A stretch of DNA of 64,000 nucleotides. Source: Eledone cirrhosa (lineage: Eukaryota). Position 1 is the first letter of the stretch; each line of letters opens with the position of its first letter. The translations under genes were made by a program, and so were the position numbers. Shown here piece by piece: positions 16,777 through 51,450 of this stretch. The notes under the pieces are model-generated. The model did no database searches. It worked only from the letters and a program-made list of their open reading frames with translations, and had not been told where the DNA came from. The stretch lies in the NCBI GenBank assembly GCA_964016885.1, contig OZ024743.1, positions 147,126,001 through 147,190,000 of the forward strand, written 5' to 3'.

Positions 16777-16816
<40 letters not shown>

Positions 16817-16819
<3 letters not shown>

Positions 16820-16977
16820 GAAGGAGCTTCTACAGCATTGAGCTTCCTGAAGATTTCATCTGAATGAAACAGTACTAGTCCTGTAGAAGCTCCTTCTATA
16901 AAATAAAAAAATTTTACTCTGCCATCTATTGAGTACCTTACTTACTGTGGTTATCCCCGACTCAACCCGGGACCTAC

Positions 16978-21924: not shown

Positions 21925-21960
<36 letters not shown>

Positions 21961-21964
<4 letters not shown>

Positions 21965-22072
21965 TGAAACAGTTCTAGTCCTGTAGAATCTCATCTATAT
22001 TAAAACTTTATACTCTGCAATGTATTGAGTACCTTATTTACTGTGGTTACCTCCGATTCAACCCGGAATAAC

Positions 22073-23961: not shown

Positions 23962-24084
23962 ATATGAATAAAATTTGTCATTCATCATTGATCTTCCAGG
24001 CTTCATTGGTATTTTTTCGCTTAAAGCGAAGAAATACCAATGAAGGCTGGAAGATCACTGATGAAGGACTAATTTTATCCATAT
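23962..24084. repeat. imperfect 120-bp hairpin between (TA)n and (CA)n
   Basis: GATCTTCCAGGCTTCATTGGTATTTTTTCGCTT / AAGCGAAGAAATACCAATGAAGGCTGGAAGATC. Confidence 0.9.
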
Positions 24085-24116
24085 GCAACCCATGTGCAAC
24101 CACGCAGCACGCCATT

Positions 24117-24206
<90 letters not shown>

Positions 24207-24450
24207 TTATACATGGAACTGAATGCATGTGTATGATTCTTTACGTATGTATATATATATATATATATATACATGGATATATATATGTATTTATATATAG
24301 ACATATATACATCTATAAACACACGCACTCATATATATATATATACATATATACACAGTTCAAGAGTAACCATTATGTTGACAATCTTTTAATAATGTCA
24401 TCCTTGTGAAATTTGTGGTCTTGTTTTGCTTAACTAGTGAATATACACAT

Positions 24451-24579
<129 letters not shown>

Positions 24580-24582
24580 AAT

Positions 24583-24687
<105 letters not shown>

Positions 24688-24690
24688 AAT

Positions 24691-24770
<80 letters not shown>

Positions 24771-25200
24771 TTCCACGTATATAAGTCATCATCATCTTCA
24801 TCCTCATTTAACGTGTGTGTAAATGATGATAATATTCATGATTATACATAGAAATACATACAATTCGACCAATGCTTTGTGAATTGGCCATAATATATGC
24901 ATATATATATATATATACACACACACATACACACATACATGTATATATATATATATGTATATTTACACATGCATTCATAAGATAAGTGCATATATACGCA
25001 ATATTTATGCATACACACAACACACATATATATGAAAGAGACAACGTACACTCTCTACGTAACTTAGCTTACCTAACACCACTAGGTTTATTTCGTTTCT
25101 ATGCAGAGAAACTCATTCAGACACACACACGCATATATATTAATATAAACACATACACACACACACATACACACACAAACACACATATATATATATATAT

Positions 25201-25298
<98 letters not shown>

Positions 25299-25315
25299 TC
25301 ACACATACACACACT

Positions 25316-25347
<32 letters not shown>

Positions 25348-25466
25348 GCCACACACACACACATATATATATTATATGTATGTTACAGAAATAACAACAC
25401 AATCAGTATAGTATATGGATATGGAAGGGATATATTAGGTTAACGCTTGAAATAGCAGGAAGAGGG

Positions 25467-25502
25467 TCTCAACGTTTCGGACGCTAGTCCTTCACCAGAA
25501 GA
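25467..25502 (-). ncRNA. minimal hammerhead, probably decayed (A6G)
   Basis: UCUU-CUGGUGA-A-GGAC UAGC GUCC-GAAACGUU-GAGA. Confidence 0.6.
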
Positions 25503-25612
25503 AAGAATGAGAAATAAAATAGACTGAGGGGACAGGCGGGATGGAATTGGAAAAAAATGTTTTTACATAAAAAGAACAAGTCCATTCATTTTGACATCTC
25601 TTGCAAACTGTT

Positions 25613-25675
<63 letters not shown>

Positions 25676-25764
25676 GTAATAAAAATAAATTTGAAGACTA
25701 AAATCCAAAGAGGGTTGATAAGGATAAATTTATATTAAATACACACACATACACACACACACAT

Positions 25765-25813
<49 letters not shown>

Positions 25814-25913
25814 TATGTATATATACATATATATATATACATATATATATATAGATATATATATAAATAAATATATGTATATACATATATATATATATAT
25901 ATATCTATATATC

Positions 25914-26019
<106 letters not shown>

Positions 26020-26208
26020 CACATATGTCTGCGAATGTGTGTGCATGTATGTGATTATATGTGTATGCATTTGTGAAGAATAATGCGTCGGTATTACTTA
26101 ACGTGACCAACTAAACAAACGTCATTTTGTGACACTTTTGTGAACAGTATTCTAATAAATATTGCCCGTACAGGTAGGCCAAGTCTGTATATACTTTTTG
26201 GGGACAGC

Positions 26209-26294
<86 letters not shown>

Positions 26295-26357
26295 TTGTGT
26301 GTATATTTGTGTGTACATATATATATAATACACATACACACATACGCACAGATATGT

Positions 26358-26404
<47 letters not shown>

Positions 26405-26514
26405 AAAATCTATCTATCTATATATATATACATATATATACGTATATATATATAAGGGTCGTGCCATAGCATGGCCTCAGCCGGATGGCTGAAACAGGTA
26501 AAAGCGTAAAAGAG

Positions 26515-26563
<49 letters not shown>

Positions 26564-26718
26564 TATACATATATATATATACCCATATCTATATATATGC
26601 ATATATATATATATATACACACATACACATATACCAACACACACACATATATATATTTATACATATATGTGTGTATGTATATATATATGTCCGTATATAT
26701 ATAAATATATACAATGTT

Positions 26719-26750
<32 letters not shown>

Positions 26751-27097
26751 TACAATGTATACACTCATACACACACACACACACACACAGAGACACACAT
26801 ATCTATATAAATAAATATATATATGCATACATGTATACATACTTATATACATACCTATATACCTATATAAGTACGAACATACACTTGTAAATATTTCCGT
26901 ACACAAATTTATATATACATGGTGGCACAAAAAAAAAAAAAACACAAAAACCCGCAACCTCAAAAAGACGCGAATATATGCAACTAAACATGTATATATA
27001 GACGTTTAGTTAAAACATGTATTTGAACATATTCATGTACATATATTTGATCATAAATATAGTAATCTTATGAACAATCACACACATACACACCCAA

Positions 27098-27181
<84 letters not shown>

Positions 27182-27262
27182 AAAGTTTACAGAAAAAATT
27201 TTTTTGGAGTATTTGATATTATTCAAAATATTAATAAATGAAAAATATTCTCATAACCAAAA

Positions 27263-27332
27263 TATATATTTTATTATACATATTTCGAAGGTACAATGGT
27301 GTTTCAGTACGTTTTCATCAGATAAAATATAT
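27263..27332 (-). ncRNA. minimal hammerhead (family I)
   Basis: 11-bp stem I AUAUAUUUUAU/AUAAAAUAUAU, CUGAUGA, imperfect stem II with GUAC/GUAC, GAAAUAUGUAUA. Confidence 0.7.
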
Positions 27333-27344
27333 GAGAGATTGGAT

Positions 27345-27480
27345 ATGCGATATACCGCTATAAAATATATGACATATATAAAATATATGCGACATACTGC
27401 TATAAAATATATGACATATATAAAATATATGCGACATACCGCTATAAAATATATGAGAAATTGGATATGCGACATACCGG
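27345..27480. repeat. 42-bp tandem repeat, about 3 units
   Basis: ATATGCGACATACCGCTATAAAATATATGACATATATAAAAT. Confidence 0.8.
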
Positions 27481-27496
27481 TTTTGATTATTCAATT

Positions 27497-27557
<61 letters not shown>

Positions 27558-27559
<2 letters not shown>

Positions 27560-27800
27560 AGGCGAGTAGCCAAGTGGTAAGGGTGTTGGACTTACGATCA
27601 TAATGTCCCGGTATCTAATCCTGGGTTGCGGGTTGTGTTCTTGAGCAAAACACTTCATTATACGTTGCTCCAGTATACTCTGCTGAAAATCAGTACCAAC
27701 AATAGCTGGGGCTTTAACGCCTCGGGCAAGTCTTGTACTCTCAGTTGCTCCATGAAACCGAGATAAGCACCGGCCAAATGAGCCTTCTGGCTTAAACAGA
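27558..27800 (+). mobile_element. SINE with S2/S3-like tRNA head
   Basis: TAGCCAAGTGGTAAG A box; GTGTTCTTGAGCAAAACACTT. Confidence 0.6.
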
Positions 27801-27851
27801 CTTTATATATATATATACGGACTTTATATATATACGGACATATATATACAT

Positions 27852-27999
27852 ACACACTGGAAGACCAAGGTTAACGTATGTTGATGCCCTAAGGACAGAC
27901 ACTGGTCTGTTGGAGACGCAGGACATGGCAGCGATAATGAGGGACAGAGACCGCTGGGGAGAACTCGTACATGGATCTCGGGATTTTTACCCACCCTAG
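27852..27999 (+). pseudogene. RTE LINE 3' fragment
   Basis: Near-identical to the reverse complement of 12661-12810. Confidence 0.88.
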
Positions 28000-28009
28000 A
28001 GAAAAAATA

Positions 28010-28622
28010 TATCCTAGACTTAATAATTAAGTAATTAATTTAATTAGACAACTCTGTTGATTGGTTAATTATTTGTGTTTGTTTAATAACGTCTGGTTGA
28101 GAGCTTTTATTCGGAATGTTGAGCGGAAATATTTTTTCCTTTGAATTTACTCGCGGAAATATTTTTTCCTTTGAATTTACTCGCCAAAAACCGGGGATTG
28201 CTTCCCTTGTTCGAAATAACACGTGACAACGAAATGTTTGAAGGCTATCTATTGTGGCGGTCGCATTTAGTTTGTTCACACCAGTTTGAGGCAATTAAAC
28301 GGAATGCCTGTTGATGAAATGAATCCCCTGGTCGATCATGGAATACCACAATCTTACGTGTTACGTAAGTTGGATAGATGATTTCGGATTCATAGAAACA
28401 TATCGGACGTATTGCAGAATATCGTCCGATCTGTCCAGGTCTGTTTTAACCTGATTAGTTCTTTCGTTGTTTTGGTATTGTATGGTTGGGTTTTGCCTGC
28501 CGCAATTTTCAATTTGTCAAGCTATTTAAACGTAATGTTATTGAGTGCTTTGCTACTCATTCCTTATTGTAGGTCGACTTTGCTTGGCCACAGCCAAAGC
28601 TTCGATTTTACTAAGCTTCCAT
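28010..28622 (+). mobile_element. family F non-coding monomer with extended hammerhead (28306-28440)
   Basis: Homologous over its full length to 33081-33690; HHR fold with UUGAUGA core. Confidence 0.8.
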
Positions 28623-28643
28623 TTATATATATAAAAATATATA

Positions 28644-28699
<56 letters not shown>

Positions 28700-28700
<1 letters not shown>

Positions 28701-28775
28701 CAAAGGAATTGTGGTAAGGAACCAGATGGACCATAACGCACCAGAGTACTCAATACTTAGGGTAGTAGAGTGGGA
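28700..28775 (-). mobile_element. isolated family A tail in (TA)n
   Basis: Reverse complement of 15410-15485. Confidence 0.85.
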
Positions 28776-29113
28776 AATATATATATATATACATATTTAC
28801 ACACACTCACATATATATATATATATGCATATATTCATAGAAGGATTTTACCAGTTTTAAACTAGAAAGAGTACATGATACTTGGAATAGTATATATACA
28901 TGTAGGATATCCGTAGATAAAAGGTCAAGGAAAGCAATGCTCAATCTATTGCTCGAGAGCTTATTTATTATAATCAACGCTTCTCTCATTTAACATGCAT
29001 GCGTGACCTTAGGATTTGGCATCCAGTTATGGCCACCACCGTATAAAAGAGGCGCAGCTCACACACACACATACACATGTGTGTGTGTATATATATGTGT
29101 GTGTGTATACATA

Positions 29114-29144
<31 letters not shown>

Positions 29145-29835
29145 CTGTATATGCACACACGCTCGTGGACATATTCGTATGCATATATATCTATATACAT
29201 ATTGTATACACATACACACACACACATACACACGCACACACATATGTACATATGAGTGTGTGTAGGTGTGCGTGTGTGGCCATATTATATGGCCAAATCA
29301 CAAAACATTGGTCGAATTAAAAATTTGAAAATATGTTTGCTGTTTAGGAAAAACTCCATAAGGCATAGGTGAAGAGGTCGAGTAAAGCTCCCTTGGAATA
29401 GAAAAAGGGAACCGTGGCCTGTACATAATCGAATCATGCCCCTCCTCTTATCCGGATGATTGACGTTAGTTATCCAGTAGTCCAACGAATATCAGGCAAA
29501 TAATTCCCCTCTTCCAAAAGATTTGAGATTTGAAGATAATTGCTTATTTGGGAAGCCGCCGCAATGCAGATAAGTAAAAATATATATATATATATAATGT
29601 CTGATTAACTTGTGTAATTTATCTCTAGAAATAAGAAAATGTTCCAAGAAATATGGCACGAGAGGGGATCAAGTGAATTCCCGATGACCGCGTTTTACGA
29701 ATACACCGAAGCGTATCTAACCGCTAATTCGTTCAGAAGCTTTAAGTGTTAAATTATATATCAAACAAAATGGTGCATGTTTCATCGTTGAATATTATAT
29801 ATATATATTTATATATATATATATATTTATATATA

Positions 29836-29907
<72 letters not shown>

Positions 29908-29910
29908 GAG

Positions 29911-30045
29911 AGAGAGGTTCCTGATGATTTCGCACAAATGAAACAGTTCTAGTCCTGTAGAATCTTTTCTATATTAAACATTTATACTCTACTATGTACT
30001 GAGTAACTTACTTACTGTGGTTACCCCCGATTGAACCCGGAATAT

Positions 30046-30046
<1 letters not shown>
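29911..30046 (+). mobile_element. family B copy with complete hammerhead (29911-29970)
   Basis: GGUUC-CUGAUGA-UUUCGCACAAAU-GAAA-CAG UUCUAGUC CUG-UA-GAAUC plus tail. Confidence 0.8.
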
Positions 30047-30083
<37 letters not shown>

Positions 30084-30184
30084 CACATATATATAGGTAA
30101 AATGTAAAAGTGGAAAATCACTTACTTAATCCAACAGAACAAATAATTATAAAATTGTTAGATTAAGTGGATCCAAATTTTATC

Positions 30185-30228
30185 AAATATTACCGGTTTC
30201 GATTGGCCTATCAATCTTATCAAATATT
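30185..30228 (-). ncRNA. minimal hammerhead family H with U3-A8 core
   Basis: AAUAU-UUGAUAA-GAUUG AUAGGC CAAUC-GAAACCGGUA-AUAUU; partial second copy on the plus strand at about 30765-30795. Confidence 0.75.
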
Positions 30229-30482
30229 CAAAAAGTTTGTTCTCATATTCTGTGCGTAGTTAGAACATATGTTCTAATTGCTCTCAGAATATGAGAATAT
30301 ATATGAGAATCCGTTGGTTGGAACGTTATCGAGAATGGTTTGTTAATTTGTTGTTTAAGTAACTTTAAACTGAACTCATCATATGGACTGAGTGCTCTAC
30401 TTACTACAGTTTTAACCTGCTGGTGTTTATATATATATATATAATTACAAGGACGATTTGTTATGCATTACGTTTAATGATT

Positions 30483-30568
30483 GATGACACGCGTTTCGCT
30501 ATTAATCAGCTGAAGGTTCGATCTGCATCGATCTGGCCCGACTCGGGAATCAAAAGCTCGTCGGACCT
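30483..30568 (-). ncRNA. candidate hammerhead with branched stem II
   Basis: GGU-CCGACGA-GCUUUUGAU..AUUAAUAGC-GAAACGCGUGUC-AUC. Confidence 0.45.
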
Positions 30569-30588
30569 CTGCTGTTGTAATGGATATA

Positions 30589-30658
<70 letters not shown>

Positions 30659-31091
30659 CGGTGACAGAGAGAGGTGGAGAGGGGGGACGGGGGGATGGGG
30701 TAAAGTTCCATACAAATCAAATGTTATAGGTAAATAGTAACAATGGAAAATCACAGAAGTTATACCAATCGAAACCAGTAATATTTGACAAAATTTATTA
30801 TCTACTCAATGTAACCTTTCATTCTGTTCGATTACAGTAAAACTAGAAATTTTTAAATACAACTCTTTCTTTTTTATTTTTAATTCTTACCTATAATCTT
30901 TCATTCGTACGGAAATTTACTCCTTCCCGCGCTCGCTCTCTCTCTCTATCTATATATCTATATGTGTGTGTGTGTGTGTGTAAATACTTATATGCATACG
31001 CGTACACACACAGCATACACACACTCTCTCTCTTACACACAATAACATATATATAATATATACATAATTATTTATATATGTATATATGTAT

Positions 31092-31136
<45 letters not shown>

Positions 31137-31375
31137 TATATATATATTCATATATGTGTGTGTATGTATTAAGACAGGGACTGACGCTTCAATGTAATAT
31201 ATTTTATTCTTAATCACACGTGACACGTGTTTCGTGAATATCCAGCCCGGAGCTTTCATCAGTTACACTCAGCTCAACCCTAGTTTCGATTTGTTCATTG
31301 GACGCAAATGGCATTAGAATCAGAATATGTTCAATTCTGTACCACCTTTAGTAATTAGTATTTCCCAGTATCCTA

Positions 31376-31432
<57 letters not shown>

Positions 31433-31545
31433 GCGTATATATATATATATATAATATGTTTATATATATACGTGAGTATATATATATATATATGTTTATA
31501 TATGTATATATATATATATTTTTATATATGTATATATATATATAT

Positions 31546-32784
31546 AATATGTTGAAAAGGTAACACACTAGAAAGGGATACAGTGCGCTATCAATAAAAC
31601 AGGGAAAAATCAACAGTGTATGGAATCTATAATCTATGAAAAGCAGAGTATAGACACGATAATTAAAAATATAAATTAAAGCGTAAATAAATACCTTTAT
31701 AACTATATAACACACGTACAAATCCAAAGTGATCTGTTTCGCCAGTGAGTTGTTGACAGATATGAAATAACCCAGGTTCATCAGCGTGTTTAAGGCTATA
31801 CATTTCAGACAACACTAAGAGAATTTTTAAAGCAACCGTCCAGCTACACGTGGGAGAGAGAAGTCACAGCGTGTTTAAGGGCAGTGAACCAGTGGCCTCT
31901 GAGAGACGAGCTGCTAGAAAGGGCATCCCAAAACCACTCAGAGAAGTGTGCTCAACCTAACAACTTACTGGCGAAACAGATCACTTTGGATTTGTACATG
32001 TGTTATATAGTTATAGAGGTATTTATTTACGCTTTAATTTATATTTTTAATTATCGTTAGTATACTCTGCATTATAGATTCCATACACTGGTGGTTTTTC
32101 CCTATTTTATTGATAGTGCACTGTATCTCTCTCTAGTGTGTTACCTTTTCAACATATTGTATTTTAAAGAGTTCGGGATTTCCTCTCCTCTGAGCACATT
32201 ATTTACAGGGAACGGCGAGAGTCTATGGCTCCGTTAACGTATCGTGATATTTCGCTCCTTATAACAGTATTTCCTCTCTCTCTGTTTGGTTGAGCACACT
32301 TCTCTGAGAGGTTTTGGGATGCCCTTTCTAGCAGCTCATCCCTCAGAGGCCACTGGTTCACTGCCCTTAAACACGCTGTGACTTCTCTCTCCCACGTGTA
32401 GCTGGACGGTCGCTTTAAAAATTCTCTTAGTGTTGTCTGAAATGTATAGCCTTACACACGCTGATGTACCTGGGTTATTTCATTTCTGTCAACAACTTAC
32501 TGGCGAAACAGATCACTTTGGATTTGTACGTATGTTATATAGTTATAGAGATATTTATTTACGCTTTAATTTATATTTTTATTTATCGTGTCTATACTCT
32601 GCCTTTCATAGGTTATAAATTCCATACACTGGTGGTTTTTCCCTGTTTTATTGATAGCACACTGTGTCTCTCTCTAGTGTGTTACCTTTTCAACATATTG
32701 TATTTTAAAGAGCTCGGGATTTCCTCTCCTTTGAGCACATTATTTACAGGGAAGGCGAGAGTCTATGGCTCCGTTAATGTATCG

Positions 32785-32787
<3 letters not shown>
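31546..32787 (+). mobile_element. family G retrozyme-like element: inverted arm plus about 1.5 tandem 532-bp units
   Basis: 31546-31960 is the reverse complement of about 32284-32699; 31959-32245 repeats at 32491-32787; HHR at 31712-31789 (minus) and 32456-32533 (plus). Confidence 0.85.
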
Positions 32788-32873
<86 letters not shown>

Positions 32874-33080
32874 TATATACATATATATATACATATATAT
32901 ATGTGTGTGTGTGTATATATATATATACACACACGCACATGTGCATATATTATATGTATATATATAAAATATAATATAATATATATTATATATATATATA
33001 TAATATATGCACATATGTGTATGTATGTGTGTGTGTGTGTGTCAGTTAGGTGTGTAAATCTCTTTCTATATATATATATA

Positions 33081-34005
33081 TAATTGGAGGCTTAGTAAAA
33101 TCGAATCTTTGGTGGTGTGCAAGCAAATTCGACCTACGATATGAATGAGTTAGCAAAGCACTCGACAAGGGTAGGTCCTTAGAGTAATAACATACGTTTA
33201 AATAGCTTGACAAATTGAACATTCTGGCAGGCAACATCTAACACACAATACCAAAGTAACGAAAGAACTAACAGGTTGAAAAAATACACCTGGACAAATC
33301 AAACGTTATACGTTTAAAGAGTTTCTATGAAACCGAAATCAAATATCAGACTTACGTAACTGGCAATCTCGTGGTATTCGTGATCGAACAGAGGACTCAT
33401 TTCATCAACATGAATTTCGTTCTACCAAAGAACGGGGCGAATACTAAATGGTGCTGCTAGCAGCAGCGATTCGAAAATTTAGTTGTCACGTGTTATTTCC
33501 AACAAGGGAAATAACCCCGGTTTTTGGCGGGTCATTCAAATTGTTATATACAGGAAATATTATAATTTCCGCTAACATTCAGAATAAGCTCTCAACCAGA
33601 TGTTATTAAACAAACACAAATAATTAACCAATCAACAGAATTGTCTAATTCAATTAATTAGGTAATTATTAAATCTAGGAGAAAATAATATAATTGGAGG
33701 CTTAGTAAAATCGAATCTTTAGCGGTGTGCAAGCAAATTCGATCTACGATATGAATGTGTGTGGTCCTTAGAGTAATAACATACGTTTAAATAGCTTGAC
33801 AAATTGAACATTGTGGCAGGCAAAATCTAACACACAATACCAAAGTAACGAAAGAACTAACAGGTTGAAAAAAATACACCTGGACAAATCAAACGTTATA
33901 CGTTTAAAGTGTTTCTATGAAACCGAAATCAATTATCAGACTTACGTAATTGGCAATCTCGTGGTATTCATGATCGAACAGAGGACTCATTTCATCAACA
34001 GGAAT
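33081..34005 (-). mobile_element. family F tandem (about 1.5 units) with two hammerheads
   Basis: TAATTGGAGGCTTAGTAAAATCG at 33081 and 33691; HHR at 33288-33412 and 33878-34002. Confidence 0.85.
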
Positions 34006-34864
34006 TATATATACATATATATATATATGTAAAAGCGTTTATGTATATTTTTTTGTGTGTTTGTGCTTGTTTGTATGTTTGTAGTCTATATTTCATTACC
34101 GACAGTTTTTTTCACAAATTCATCTCACTTTTGTTAATTTGTTTTGGAATAATATATATCGTAACCCCACAATTCACGCTCGTGGATGATATCACTCCTC
34201 ATTTCTGCCTCTTAATATTATACAGTAATATTATACGTTTGTGTAAGGCATTTGATGGTCTATTTCATGGGGATTTTGATGACCCTTTATCACTTCTATT
34301 ATTAGTATATATTTGGTTCTAACTATACATTTTAGTTGTGTTTTGTGTATTGTTAATAGGTGTAGTGTCTCGTGTAATTCTTGTGTTCTATTTGTAATGG
34401 TAATATTCTGTTTTGTTGTTAGAATGTTTAATGTTGACAAGCAATTATTAACTTGTCTGGGATTCATTACCTGGCACATTCTTCTCTGGGGAGTATCTAA
34501 AGACTATTCTAAATTGATATTTTACTACTGACACATTATACCTATTTGGACATTTGCTGTACACAGTTAAGTATGCTCCCTTTTCTGAGTATTTGGTGTA
34601 CAAGGACATATGCATCTGTTATTTCCTTTCTGAATATTTATGTCTAGAAATGGGGTTAATATATTCATAGGAGATTTATTTGTATCGTTCTGGAACTGGA
34701 TGTTTAAGACGAAGTTATTTTCTTGTCTGTTTTTTAATGCTATCACGTTTTCCGGTGTGCTTATTACGACGAATATATTGTGTATTTACTACGCATAGGT
34801 GCTACTTTGTTTTATATTGTGACCACAATGTACACATGGCTACTCGCTTTTTTTAACAGCTGAG

Positions 34865-39935: not shown

Positions 39936-40238
39936 TAATATCCCGAAGACGGCCCTTGCCATTCTGAGTTCAAATCCTGTCGAGGTTAACTTTGCCTTTC
40001 ATCCTTACGGGGTCGATAAAATAAAGTACCAGTAATGTACTGAATAATTGCTGGCCTTGTGCCAAACGTAGAAACAATTAATATCCCGAAGACGGCCCTT
40101 GCCATTCTGAGTTCAAATCCCGCCGAGGTTAACTTTGCCTTTCATCCTTACGGGGTCGATAAAATAAAGTACCAGTAATGTACTGGGTAATTGCTGGCCT
40201 TGTGCCAAACGTAGAAACAATTAATAATATCCCGAAGA
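39936..40238 (+). mobile_element. tandemly duplicated truncated SINE S1 (143-bp period)
   Basis: TAATATCCCGAAGA occurs three times, flanking two identically truncated copies. Confidence 0.9.
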
Positions 40239-40916: not shown

Positions 40917-41790
40917 TTACAGTAACAATAATGGTTTCTTATATAGGCACAAGGCCAGCAATTTTGGGGGGAGTGAAAAGTCGATGAAATTGACCCCAGT
41001 GCGTGACTGGTACTTTATTTTATCGACCCTGTAAGGATGAAAGGCAAAGTTAACCTCGGCGGGATTTGAACTCAGATCATAAAGGGCCGTAACTCTATGC
41101 GGCAAAGCATGGCGTCCGACCCTCTACCGATACTGGCAATCCACCGCCCTTACAGTAACAATAATAATAATAATAATTGTTTCTACTTTTGGCACAAGGC
41201 CAGCAATTACCCAGTACATTACTGGTACTTTATTTTATCGACCCCGTAAGGATGAAAGGCAAAGTTAACCTCGACGGGATTTGAACTCAGACCGTAAAGG
41301 GACGTAACTATGCTGGAAAGCATGGCGTCCGACTCTCTACCGATACTGGCAATTCACCGCCAATAATAATGATTTCTAGTATAGGCACAAGGCTAGCAAT
41401 TTGGGGGAGGGGAAAGTCGATGAAATTGACCCCAGTGCGTGACTGGTACTTTATTTTATCGACCCCGTAAGGATGAAAGGCAAAGTTAACCTCGGCCGGA
41501 TTTGAACTCAGATCATAAAGGGCCGTAACTCTATGCGGCAAAGCATGGCGTCCGACCCTCTACCGATACTGCCAATCCACCGCCCTTACAGTAACAATAA
41601 TAATAATAATAATTGTTTCTACTTTAGGCACAAGGCCAGCAATTATCCAGTACATTCCTGGTACTTTATTTTATCGACCCGGTAAGGATGAAAGGTAAAG
41701 TTAACCCCGGCGGGATTTGAACTCAGACCGTAAAGAGCCGTAACTCTATGCAGCAAAGCATTTCGTTCGACCCTCTACCGATATTGCCAA
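40917..41790 (-). mobile_element. array of four SINE S1 copies (alternating long and short variants)
   Basis: Copies at about 40933-41149, 41172-41360, 41365-41585 and 41610-41790. Confidence 0.92.
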
Positions 41791-47269: not shown

Positions 47270-49144
47270 CTCAACACAGATGGAGAAGCCCTCAATTGTG
47301 GTAGAAAACTATGATTATGAAGATACGAGGTTCAGTTTGGTAACAATTGAGTCGTTCCTTACAATCCTTTGCTCTGCAAAATCCTTGATGCTCACATCAA
47401 TTGTGAGTACAGCGCATCAGTAAAATCCATTAACTAACAGGGAGATATATTTCTAGCCATGAAGCCATATGGATAATCTTTGGTTTTGACATACACAATA
47501 GACACCCAGTGGTAGTGAACCTTGCAGACCACTTGAAAATGGTCAGAGGGTATATTACACCGAAGAAAAAGCACAATTGATTGCTGCATCTCCTCCAGAC
47601 ACAACGCTCATTGCTTTATCATGAGGTTCCCACATTCTACGCATGGAATAAAAAAGAAATGGAGCAGACGAAAGATAGGCAATCATGTGGATGGCTATCA
47701 AAACATCAAAGCAAGCGGTACAATAGAAAGTGTTTACGGTCCATCCAAAACACAGGGAATACTTTCATTTGAGGTCAATCTTTCACATTGTTAGAGGGCC
47801 AACATCATTCGAAAATATCAAAATTGTACATGGAACTCCGTGTGCAACGTATGCTGAAGCATGTAAATTACTTGGCCTACTTGAAAACGGGGAATATTGG
47901 AATAAGACATTGGAAGTGGCAGCTGCCACACGAATGCCTAAAAAGCTTTGACAGCTCTTCACTGTAATGCTCACTACGTACAATATTTCAGATCCCTTGA
48001 GTCTCTGGGAAAGCTATAGGAAAGACTTGTCGGAAGATATAGCACAGGATCAAACTTCAAAACACTGGCATTAATGAAGAACTTTTAGAAATTAACAACT
48101 ACCTGAGTGAAATTGACTGGTGCTTTAAGGATTGCGGTTTACCAGAACCTGAGGATACAGTTGCATACTCTATTGCCTCAAAGTATCAACTATATGGCAA
48201 CAAGTCCAGCGATTACTCTTGAGGACAAACATGATGCAGAAATCAATACTTTTGCAAAACCGCTAATTAAACTGGGTGATGGAAATATGCAACAAGATGA
48301 AAATGGATAAGTCAACCTTCCATTTGGAAATGTCTGTAATGCAACAAATGAACTAATTGATCAAGTATTTCCAAATGTTGCCTCAAATTATATCAATAAA
48401 TTGTGGATGTTTCAGAGAGCAATTTTAGCGCCAAAATATAATAGGGTAAATCAATCAGATCAAGCAATGCGTACTGGATACCCTACCATGGGAGGTTCAT
48501 ACATATGTCTTCATTAGCAAGATTGAAAATTATGACGAAGCTGTTAATTATCCTGCATTCCTTAATAGTCTGGAAATTCCTGGACTTTGTCCACACAAAT
48601 TAACGCTAAAAATTGTAACTCCCATCATCCTTTTGAGAAACCTGGACCCACCACGTCTATGCAATGGCACGCGCTTTACCGTAAGGCAGAGAATGAAATA
48701 TCTCCTAGAGGTAACAATTCTTGGAGGCAATGATCAAGACAAAAATGCATCAATTCCAAAGATTCCACTTATCCCTTCCTCTACCGAGCTACCATTCAAA
48801 TTCTCTAGACTTCAATTCCCTGTTAAAGCCAGTTTTACGATGACCATAAATAAAGCTTAGGGTTAGAGTCTCAAAGTCGTAGGATTGAATCTGCTAGAAT
48901 CAGTTTTTACCCTTGGACATTTATATGTTGGTTGTTCACGAGAGGGAACATCTAGAAATCTTCATATACTATGCATGAACGGTAAAACAAAGAATCTGGA
49001 AATATTTTGACTTTTTTCTCACACACATATCATTGTCTCGCCTCATACTGTAAATCAGACAACGCATCCAGTACAGTCATTTCCTCTTCTACCTGTCTTC
49101 TCTTATCAACTTTTCACCCGTGCGAAGCCAGGTAACTCATCTAG
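47270..49144 (+). mobile_element. decayed, internally deleted Helitron (Rep-helicase remnants and 3' end)
   Basis: VVPYNPLLCKILDAHINCE, VRGPTSFE..TYAEACKLLGLL, RNLDPPRLCNGTR, RLQFPVKASFTMTINKA, LYVGCSR; terminal GC-rich hairpin and CTAG|T at 49141-49145. Confidence 0.92.
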
Positions 49145-50614: not shown

Positions 50615-50899
50615 GTATATATATACATATATATATACTTAAGAAAATTAACAAAGAGAGGACAATGTCTAGCATCTGTATAATATTTTAAAGAACAAAT
50701 TTAATGATAAAATACTTATAAAGACCGAGAAAGCATTATATTCCTGATTAGAGCCCCTGGCGCAGAACTATGTCTATTTTGAAGGAAATATGCGTGAAAA
50801 TTCGTTTAGCTTATTTATATGAACATTGCAGTGACAGGCTTGAATAGCTCGAGGGAAAAGTTTGCCGCCAAAACGAAGTATTCAACTGCTCATAGTATG

Positions 50900-51450
50900 G
50901 TATACAAAGTTTATGTCACGGTCATTTTGTTCCTCACTGCATTATATCTGAAGTGAAGAAGGGTCTGTCATTCAATGTCCTTCTCATTATCAACAATGCT
51001 ACCAACCATTTCGAAATCCTGATGCATGAGAATGAACATGACAAACTGCTATTTGTGCCTCCAAACGCAATGCCACTGCTACAATCATGTGATCAAGGCA
51101 TCATAAGGTGTGAAAGAATTGCTGCTGAACTTGATGTTAACCTAGGTTACAGAGTTATTAATCTATGGAACAGCCTCACAACTGTGAATGTAATTGAGAT
51201 TATTGCTGAATCCTTTGAAGCCCTACAACCCAAGAAATTCAACGCTTGCAAGATGGCTCTATGGAGCAAGGCTGTCAATGACTTCACGAGCTTCTCTATT
51301 ATCGATTGAGAAGGGGAGGATGTTTTGCAAGTTGCCAGCAAAGCTGATAGTGAAGGCGTCTCTGACATGAACGTGGAAGACATCAAACAACACGTTGAAC
51401 AGCACTCAGATATTTCGTAGTTACGAAGACATTGAAGAACTGATGAAATC
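50900..51450 (+). pseudogene. Tigger/pogo DDE transposase fragment
   Basis: GLSFNVLLIINNATNH...LFVPPNAMPLLQSCDQGII resembles VLLxxDNAxxH...FLPPNTTxxxQPxDQGII. Confidence 0.85.

Follow-up and report, generated by a model that had tools for sequence, protein, structure and literature searches.

A decayed, protein-free mobile element of about 610 bases with hammerhead-like motifs, probably a non-autonomous Penelope-like element

In the 64-kb stretch of DNA analysed here (the window), positions 33081–34005 hold an ageing, decayed copy of a ~610-base, protein-free mobile element. The element is probably a non-autonomous Penelope-like element (PLE), as the animal non-LTR retrozyme is now argued to be, and its family has many copies, built on an ORF-less unit of ~610 nt that shows a type I hammerhead fold. 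The 3′ end is fixed and lies on (TA)n, the 5′ ends vary, and units can be joined head to tail. What is unusual in the element is its ribozyme: the core has U at position 3, the helix II region spans 76 nt, and two sites resembling a splice donor and acceptor lie around the cut site. The window is eukaryotic repeat-rich DNA, AT-rich (GC 20–45%) and with many (TA)n tracts, and the GC content of the ~610-nt unit is low, at about 33%. The insertion is built as follows:

33081..34005, minus strand: whole insertion, a non-coding repeat forming a 1.5-unit partial tandem A-B-A in (TA)n
33691..34005, minus strand: upstream 5′-truncated unit, segment A only (equivalent of a pseudo-LTR, pLTR), with a 21-nt deletion
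33081..33690, minus strand: full 610-nt unit, its 3′ end against (TA)n
33690–33416, minus strand: segment B of the full unit, 5′ of A
33415–33081, minus strand: segment A of the full unit
33680..33700, minus strand: A-to-B head-to-tail joint; other copies carry the same joint with other letters
33293..33882, minus strand: predicted cleavage-to-cleavage RNA of 590 nt, without ORF
32787..33080: (TA)n/(TG)n microsatellite at the 3′ end of the element
34006..34030: short (TA)n tract at the 5′ end of the element

An earlier, sequence-only reading had described a head-to-tail repeat with a 610-bp period, which is borne out by window blastn, pairing 33078–33415 with 33688–34005 at 90% identity, and by the 610-nt spacing of the unit ends. 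Aligned to each other, the two copies of segment A show 303 matches, 11 substitutions and 22 gap columns, and the units within the tandem have diverged by 3.5% plus indels. This divergence would correspond to a few million years at an octopus-like rate (Jukes-Cantor 0.09 for 25 My; O. vulgaris repeat paper). The ribozymes lie only 589–590 nt apart because the upstream unit has lost 21 nt by deletion and gained 1 nt by insertion. The cuts predicted at 33293 and 33883, 590 nt apart, do fall at GUC|CAGG sites on the minus strand with H17 at both, and the array starts, as had been noted, a few nucleotides upstream of the first hammerhead, leaving 3 nt to helix I and 7 nt to the core. Two qualifications apply to the same reading: the tandem array is real as a repeat but amounts to only 1.5 units and is no multimer, and two ribozymes bracket the unit as motifs but the downstream one is degraded, the motif at 33293 being the one of the two that a strict descriptor does not pick up. 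The predicted 590-nt excised unit folds at z = −2.8, with 1 of 100 shuffles as stable.

TA-type tracts touch all four ends of two insertions in the window, 33081–34005 and a monomer at 28 kb, and no target duplication is discernible at the (TA)n insertion. Neither a 30–40-nt tail nor an inverted 5′ copy was seen at 33081–34005. At 31542–32785, a second hammerhead-bearing non-coding family sits in (TA)n as a partial tandem with a 532–541-nt period and a 421-nt inverted 5′ copy, a textbook PLE layout, and the core CUGAUGA with a 36-nt helix II region is found in its inverted arm. The window also holds a SINE-like repeat of ~215 nt, dispersed and in short tandems (40995–41790, 39936–40226 and other copies), which may resemble octopus SINEs.

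The absence of visible coding capacity is confirmed: with the unit read as a circle, stop-free stretches reach at most 48 aa on the ribozyme strand and at most 80 aa on the opposite one. Pfam found no reverse transcriptase (RT) or GIY-YIG domain in 12 of the 53 stop-to-stop frames of at least 120 aa in the window, the frames skipped being simple-repeat-like ones and some short ones. An 81-codon frame of the 28-kb monomer stays open up to the 3′ end of that copy; phmmer returned no match for it among 1.84 billion proteins, and the frame is broken in the tandem units. Exact-pattern scans of metagenome and viral contigs gave no matches, and none of these searches turned up an autonomous partner. 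A bacterial promoter scan, which is not meaningful on this DNA, stayed at chance level. Elsewhere in the window, Pfam detected a Pif1 2B domain at 48450–48860 (E 6.5e-14), which would be Helitron-like, and a DDE_1 endonuclease fragment of a DNA transposon at 50896–51309 (E 6.4e-06).

Hammerhead-like motifs are found in both units of the tandem and in the monomer:

33879..34002, minus strand: type I hammerhead-like motif a, predicted cut after 33883
33289..33412, minus strand: hammerhead-like motif b, predicted cut after 33293
28010..28625, plus strand: diverged monomer B-A, 75% identical to the tandem unit (blastn)
28307–28439, plus strand: fully paired hammerhead in the monomer, predicted cut after 28435

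A solitary diverged monomer with nearly the same ends as the array had been reported, and it is present, at 75% identity; its ends, however, match those of the full unit (33680–33081) and not the 5′ start of the array. It starts 11 nt into the unit, and its 3′ end on (TA)n is that of the tandem.

Each of the three copies has the type I layout CCUG-UUGAUGA-A-(helix II region)-A-GAAAC-(helix III)-GUC|CAGG, with a helix I of 4 bp and 76–77 nt between the core strands. In motif a, helix I is formed by CCUG and CAGG, the core by UUGAUGA (33998–33992) and GAAAC (33915–33911), and helix III is long. An ATG opens helix II, and the unpaired base after A9 is present. Compared with the core consensus CUGANGA / GAAA / NUH, C3 is the only letter missing, its place being taken by a U that faces G8 as a wobble; moreover, an A faces an A at the base of helix II, and the G10.1–C11.1 pair is absent. 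C3U lowers hammerhead activity, and the cost that we assume for U3–G8 rests on this effect. The natural core covariant reported at positions 3 and 8 is U3–A8, not U3–G8 (PMC3088659), and our literature search found no paper combining "hammerhead" with U3–G8 or C3U. With its 4-bp helix I, helix II region of 76–77 nt, long helix III and U3, the motif departs from the canonical metazoan build of a 6-bp helix I, a 4-bp helix II and a 1–2-bp helix III (PMC4209133). A type II/III reading, in which CAGG pairs with a downstream CCUG, was rejected, as no CUGANGA follows that stem.

Rfam returned no match at the gathering score over the whole window and, with E up to 10 over 27900–34100, 133 matches, none of them a hammerhead and nearly all microRNA models on microsatellite. 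Dinucleotide shuffles carried a type I motif in 0 of 2000 cases for the monomer and in 1 of 2000 for 33396–34005, a rough control since the descriptor was written after the motif had been seen. Other hammerhead-like sequences occur in the window: three copies of a mini element of ~150 nt (16816–16960, which sits between TA tracts, 21958–22056 and 29914–30030) carry a compact hammerhead of type I (CUGAAGA ... GUA), and the minus strand of 30096–30580, a segment with an internal inverted repeat, holds a possible minimal hammerhead with a U3–A8 core at 30223.

The three copies are unequally preserved. The monomer keeps 22 of 22 named hammerhead pairs; motif a, with helix II weakened by two changes, keeps 21; motif b, with the same weak helix II and additional mismatches at 33411 (helix I) and 33320 (helix III), keeps 19. 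Under core constraints, the probability of the hammerhead fold is 0.67 for the monomer, 0.004 for the motif at 33883 and 2e-7 for that at 33293. The hammerhead is the minimum-energy fold of the monomer sequence (z = −2.0), and motif a is no more stable than its shuffled versions (z = −0.13). Adding 40 nt downstream lowers the probabilities to 0.0005, 1e-6 and 2e-12, respectively, because the CAGG after the cut can pair, as an alternative to helix I, with a conserved CCUG that follows it in all three copies (33292–33272; 28436–28453). According to these folding models, the competing hairpin may restrain cleavage, or the motif may rarely form. Between monomer and tandem, two outer helix III pairs have changed on both sides, in a comparison of two independent sequences only. 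Both tandem motifs are damaged, that at 33293 badly, and the locus probably makes no 590-nt RNA today. Judged by sequence, the hammerhead motif is nevertheless a trait of the family, since shuffles produce it in only 0–1 of 2000 cases, the monomer folds into it and reads from other copies carry the pairing letters.

These reads come from four of eight public sequencing runs, aligned to 33081–33690 at 80% likeness. The unit was found in 1528 of 16.3 million contigs in run X1, 25 of 762,587 contigs in X4, 12 of 8.25 million in X5 (another organism) and 1951 of 12.5 million reads in X6, a RAD-seq run whose reads may come from few loci; summed depth is not a copy number. At four damaged positions, the common letter in X1 restores pairing: 33411 (2271 of 2430 summed depth), 33320 (6915 of 6915), 33332 (10013 of 10116) and 33396 (5000 of 6201). 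The lesions are therefore those of this locus and not of the family. No core position is among the 40 listed of 183 variant rows, and the common variant at 33327 (4685 of 8388, X1) disrupts the first pair of helix II, unless the opposite base compensates.

The reads also delimit the ends of the element. Its 3′ end is fixed, with 269 X6 reads and one X4 contig going from 33085 into (TA)n, and internal stops on microsatellite occur at 33280 (X4) and 33247 (X5). Depth declines from 3′ to 5′ in X4, X5 and X6, falling in X4 from 470–860 in the 3′ 170 nt to 10–25 in segment B. In X1, depth is not monotonic and again reaches 24,000–28,000 at 33606–33647, which suggests, from read depth, many near-full units. 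Positions 33165–33227 stand at 5–10 times the rest of the unit in summed X1 depth, up to 142,000, and may be shared with related families or with an autonomous partner. The head-to-tail joint, 33690 to 33085, is carried by two X1 contigs and by three X6 reads with one start, and the joints listed also include a form shifted by one base; four joint letters differ from those of the window, and the joints in the reads therefore belong to other copies. Letters at ~1% in X1 (33332, 33367) are common to both window units, which fits one template. A unit end is run over by 50 X1 contigs and 333 X6 reads, the letters of few of which are listed.

The anatomy of the element is that of a PLE in the tests run, whereas its ribozyme is not the canonical hammerhead of classical retrozymes. 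PLEs are described as partial tandems with a truncated upstream copy and a hammerhead in the repeated end (10.1101/2021.04.23.441226), and the insertion is such an A-B-A arrangement with a 5′-truncated upstream copy, a fixed 3′ end shared by both window insertions, variable 5′ truncation and a hammerhead in the repeated terminal segment. The 4-bp helix I, long helix II and base after A9 agree with PLE hammerheads, which are reported to combine a short helix I with an enlarged helix II and to leave a base unpaired after A9 (PMC4209133). (TA)n targeting has been described for Naiad, Neptune and Hydra PLEs (10.1101/2021.04.23.441226), and Neptune or Hydra as the partner clade would fit both the hammerhead and the TA targeting. 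For the anole PLE PAc, the protein is reported to nick AT-rich DNA, reverse transcription to start inside the RNA, downstream of the hammerhead and on mostly uncleaved RNA, and the ORF to begin at helix II (PMC11167929).

We thus propose that a PLE protein mobilised the element in trans, the template being multimeric or circular. A tandem copy would be transcribed on the minus strand, and an RT/GIY-YIG protein from an autonomous PLE elsewhere in the genome would nick a (TA)n tract. Reverse transcription would start internally, ~210 nt downstream of the ribozyme cut site and not at the cut, and would proceed over a variable distance, with short runs yielding truncated copies, about one unit the 28-kb monomer and 1.5 units the insertion at 33081–34005. 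The latter would have required the cut site to be crossed twice, which implies an uncleaved multimeric RNA or a religated circle as template; the monomer, 11 nt short of a full unit, would favour a circle, though as a single case. The copy at 33081–34005 has decayed since its insertion, and its catalytic activity is probably weak or lost.

Animals are already known to carry elements of this type and length. The unit had been called unusually long; this does not hold, as 610 nt is inside the 51–972 bp spanned by retrozyme family consensus sequences in the preprint of Li et al. 2026, where the mean in ray-finned fish is 650 bp (bioRxiv 10.64898/2026.07.22.740005), although it exceeds the ~170–400-nt tandem units, expressed as circles, that Cervera and de la Peña 2020 describe as invertebrate retrozymes (PMC7229834). 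Its description as retrozyme-like is apt, given an ORF-less unit arranged head to tail, the type I hammerhead in it and the presence of the joint in other copies. Like animal non-LTR retrozymes, the family has ORF-less head-to-tail units with one type I hammerhead each, low GC and monomers beside dimers; unlike them, the insertion comprises 1.5 units only and bears a non-canonical ribozyme. With endonuclease-bearing PLEs it shares the partial tandem, the truncated upstream copy, the fixed 3′ end downstream of the hammerhead and the (TA)n targets, but not an RT/GIY-YIG ORF. Its motif resembles PLE pLTR hammerheads in the short helix I, the enlarged helix II, the extra base after A9 and the ATG at the start of helix II, and in its long helix III it is like the PLE hammerheads of fungi and protists, that of metazoan ones being minimal. 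Non-autonomous Chlamys elements such as MRC1 are similarly non-coding, with pLTRs, head-to-tail insertions and microsatellite targets, yet they are green algal, and hammerheads are absent from most Chlamys elements as described (10.1101/2021.04.23.441226). Our literature search found no cephalopod hammerhead element described by title or abstract, and neither "ribozyme" nor "retrozyme" occurs in the main text of the O. vulgaris repeat paper.

Retrozymes and PLEs are themselves not cleanly separated. PLEs were named as likely mobilisers of retrozymes in 2020 (PMC7229834), and Li et al., who report homology to the pLTRs of 21 Repbase PLE entries, propose that retrozymes are non-autonomous PLE derivatives (10.64898/2026.07.22.740005), because of which a test of retrozyme versus PLE terminal repeat is blurred. 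A strict retrozyme, whose intact members would be cut at both hammerheads and ligated to an accumulating ~610-nt circle serving as template, would add to the PLE explanation and not exclude it. We hold this addition to be a tentative possibility, somewhat on the doubtful side. A circular template predicts a monomer such as that at 28 kb, which, counted from the fixed 3′ end, falls only 11 nt short of one unit, the ORF-less joint recurs in other copies, and abundant circles are made by mussel retrozymes (PMC7229834); joints are, however, few relative to the depth at the 5′ end of B. While the long helix III could allow the motif to act as a monomer and the excised unit is more stable than its shuffles, the fold probabilities in the tandem are very low, the G10.1–C11.1 pair is absent and U3 faces G8, whereas U3–A8 is the natural covariant reported (PMC3088659; PMC4209133). 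Findings on known relatives also speak against the strict reading: in the account of PAc it is dispensable for insertion, with no RNA ends at the cut site (PMC11167929), and in vitro only one of nine elements tested by Li et al. cleaved, eight of nine predicted frog retrozymes showing no cleavage (10.64898/2026.07.22.740005).

Segment A runs straight into B in the window, as it does in three or more records with other letters. This leaves no space for an ORF and makes it unlikely that the unit is solely a pLTR, the terminal repeat belonging to a longer coding PLE, with the window copies as truncation or deletion products. Such an origin would agree with the ATG that opens helix II, as in PAc (PMC11167929), with the contigs and reads that cross a unit end and with the finding that most PLE copies are 5′-truncated with one terminal repeat (10.64898/2026.07.22.740005); the 81-codon frame of the monomer, open to the 3′ end, would point the same way, but has no protein relative and is broken in the tandem units. 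Very improbable, finally, is a local accident, be it the arrival of a second truncated copy next to an older monomer in the TA tract or a later DNA duplication, or a hammerhead arisen by chance. In favour are the AT richness of the joint, the divergence of 3.5% plus indels between the units and the lack of an Rfam match, yet the joint with 11 family-specific nucleotides is found in other records, both units share rare letters, shuffles hardly ever yield the motif and the family keeps the hammerhead pairing.

A further feature deserves mention, as each copy contains a candidate short intron around the cut site:

33880..33945, minus strand: candidate 66-nt intron GUAAGU ... CAG|G, with the cut site and the GAAA strand of the core inside it
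33290..33355, minus strand: candidate 66-nt intron of the downstream unit
28365–28438, plus strand: candidate 74-nt intron in the monomer

In all three copies, helix II contains GUAAGU, and a pyrimidine-rich CAG|G lies three bases beyond the cut; the ten letters around the donor are identical between monomer and tandem, whereas the flanks differ. GUAAGU occurs 29 times in 128 kb (both strands), acceptor-like sites are common (7 in 925 nt), and the CAGG at the putative acceptor is also required by helix I; a chance origin of the pair, estimated post hoc at the order of 1–2%, remains. No joint skipping the candidate intron is among the joints listed, from runs that are not on record as RNA. In D. 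virilis Penelope, a 75-bp intron overlaps the hammerhead (PMC4209133; 10.1101/2021.04.23.441226) and ends at the 5′ strand of helix I (PMC4209133), a likeness to the possible short intron overlapping the ribozyme here. It is conceivable, if quite improbable, that the U3–G8 hammerhead is active, with a 5′ splice site hidden in its long helix II and a 3′ splice site 3 nt past the cut, such that transcripts would be either spliced or self-cleaved to a ~610-nt circle copied by a PLE RT. Splicing of the 66–74-nt intron would then delete half of the core and the cut site, leaving a stable, ribozyme-free RNA, and both the retained intron and the hammerhead of PLEs, whose role is still described as unclear (10.1101/2021.04.23.441226), would be given a function. 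A splice-versus-cleave arrangement was not found among the papers listed in a literature search.

In summary, our analysis adds what is probably one more hammerhead-bearing non-coding PLE derivative, from an invertebrate-type genome. It is of modest relevance to the 2026 proposal that the PLE machinery carries retrozymes, for which the tests were mainly in vertebrates. With fixed 3′ ends ~210 nt from the cut, RT initiation and self-cleavage are distinguishable in this family. The intact 28-kb monomer is a ready substrate for studying a U3–G8 hammerhead with a 77-nt helix II.
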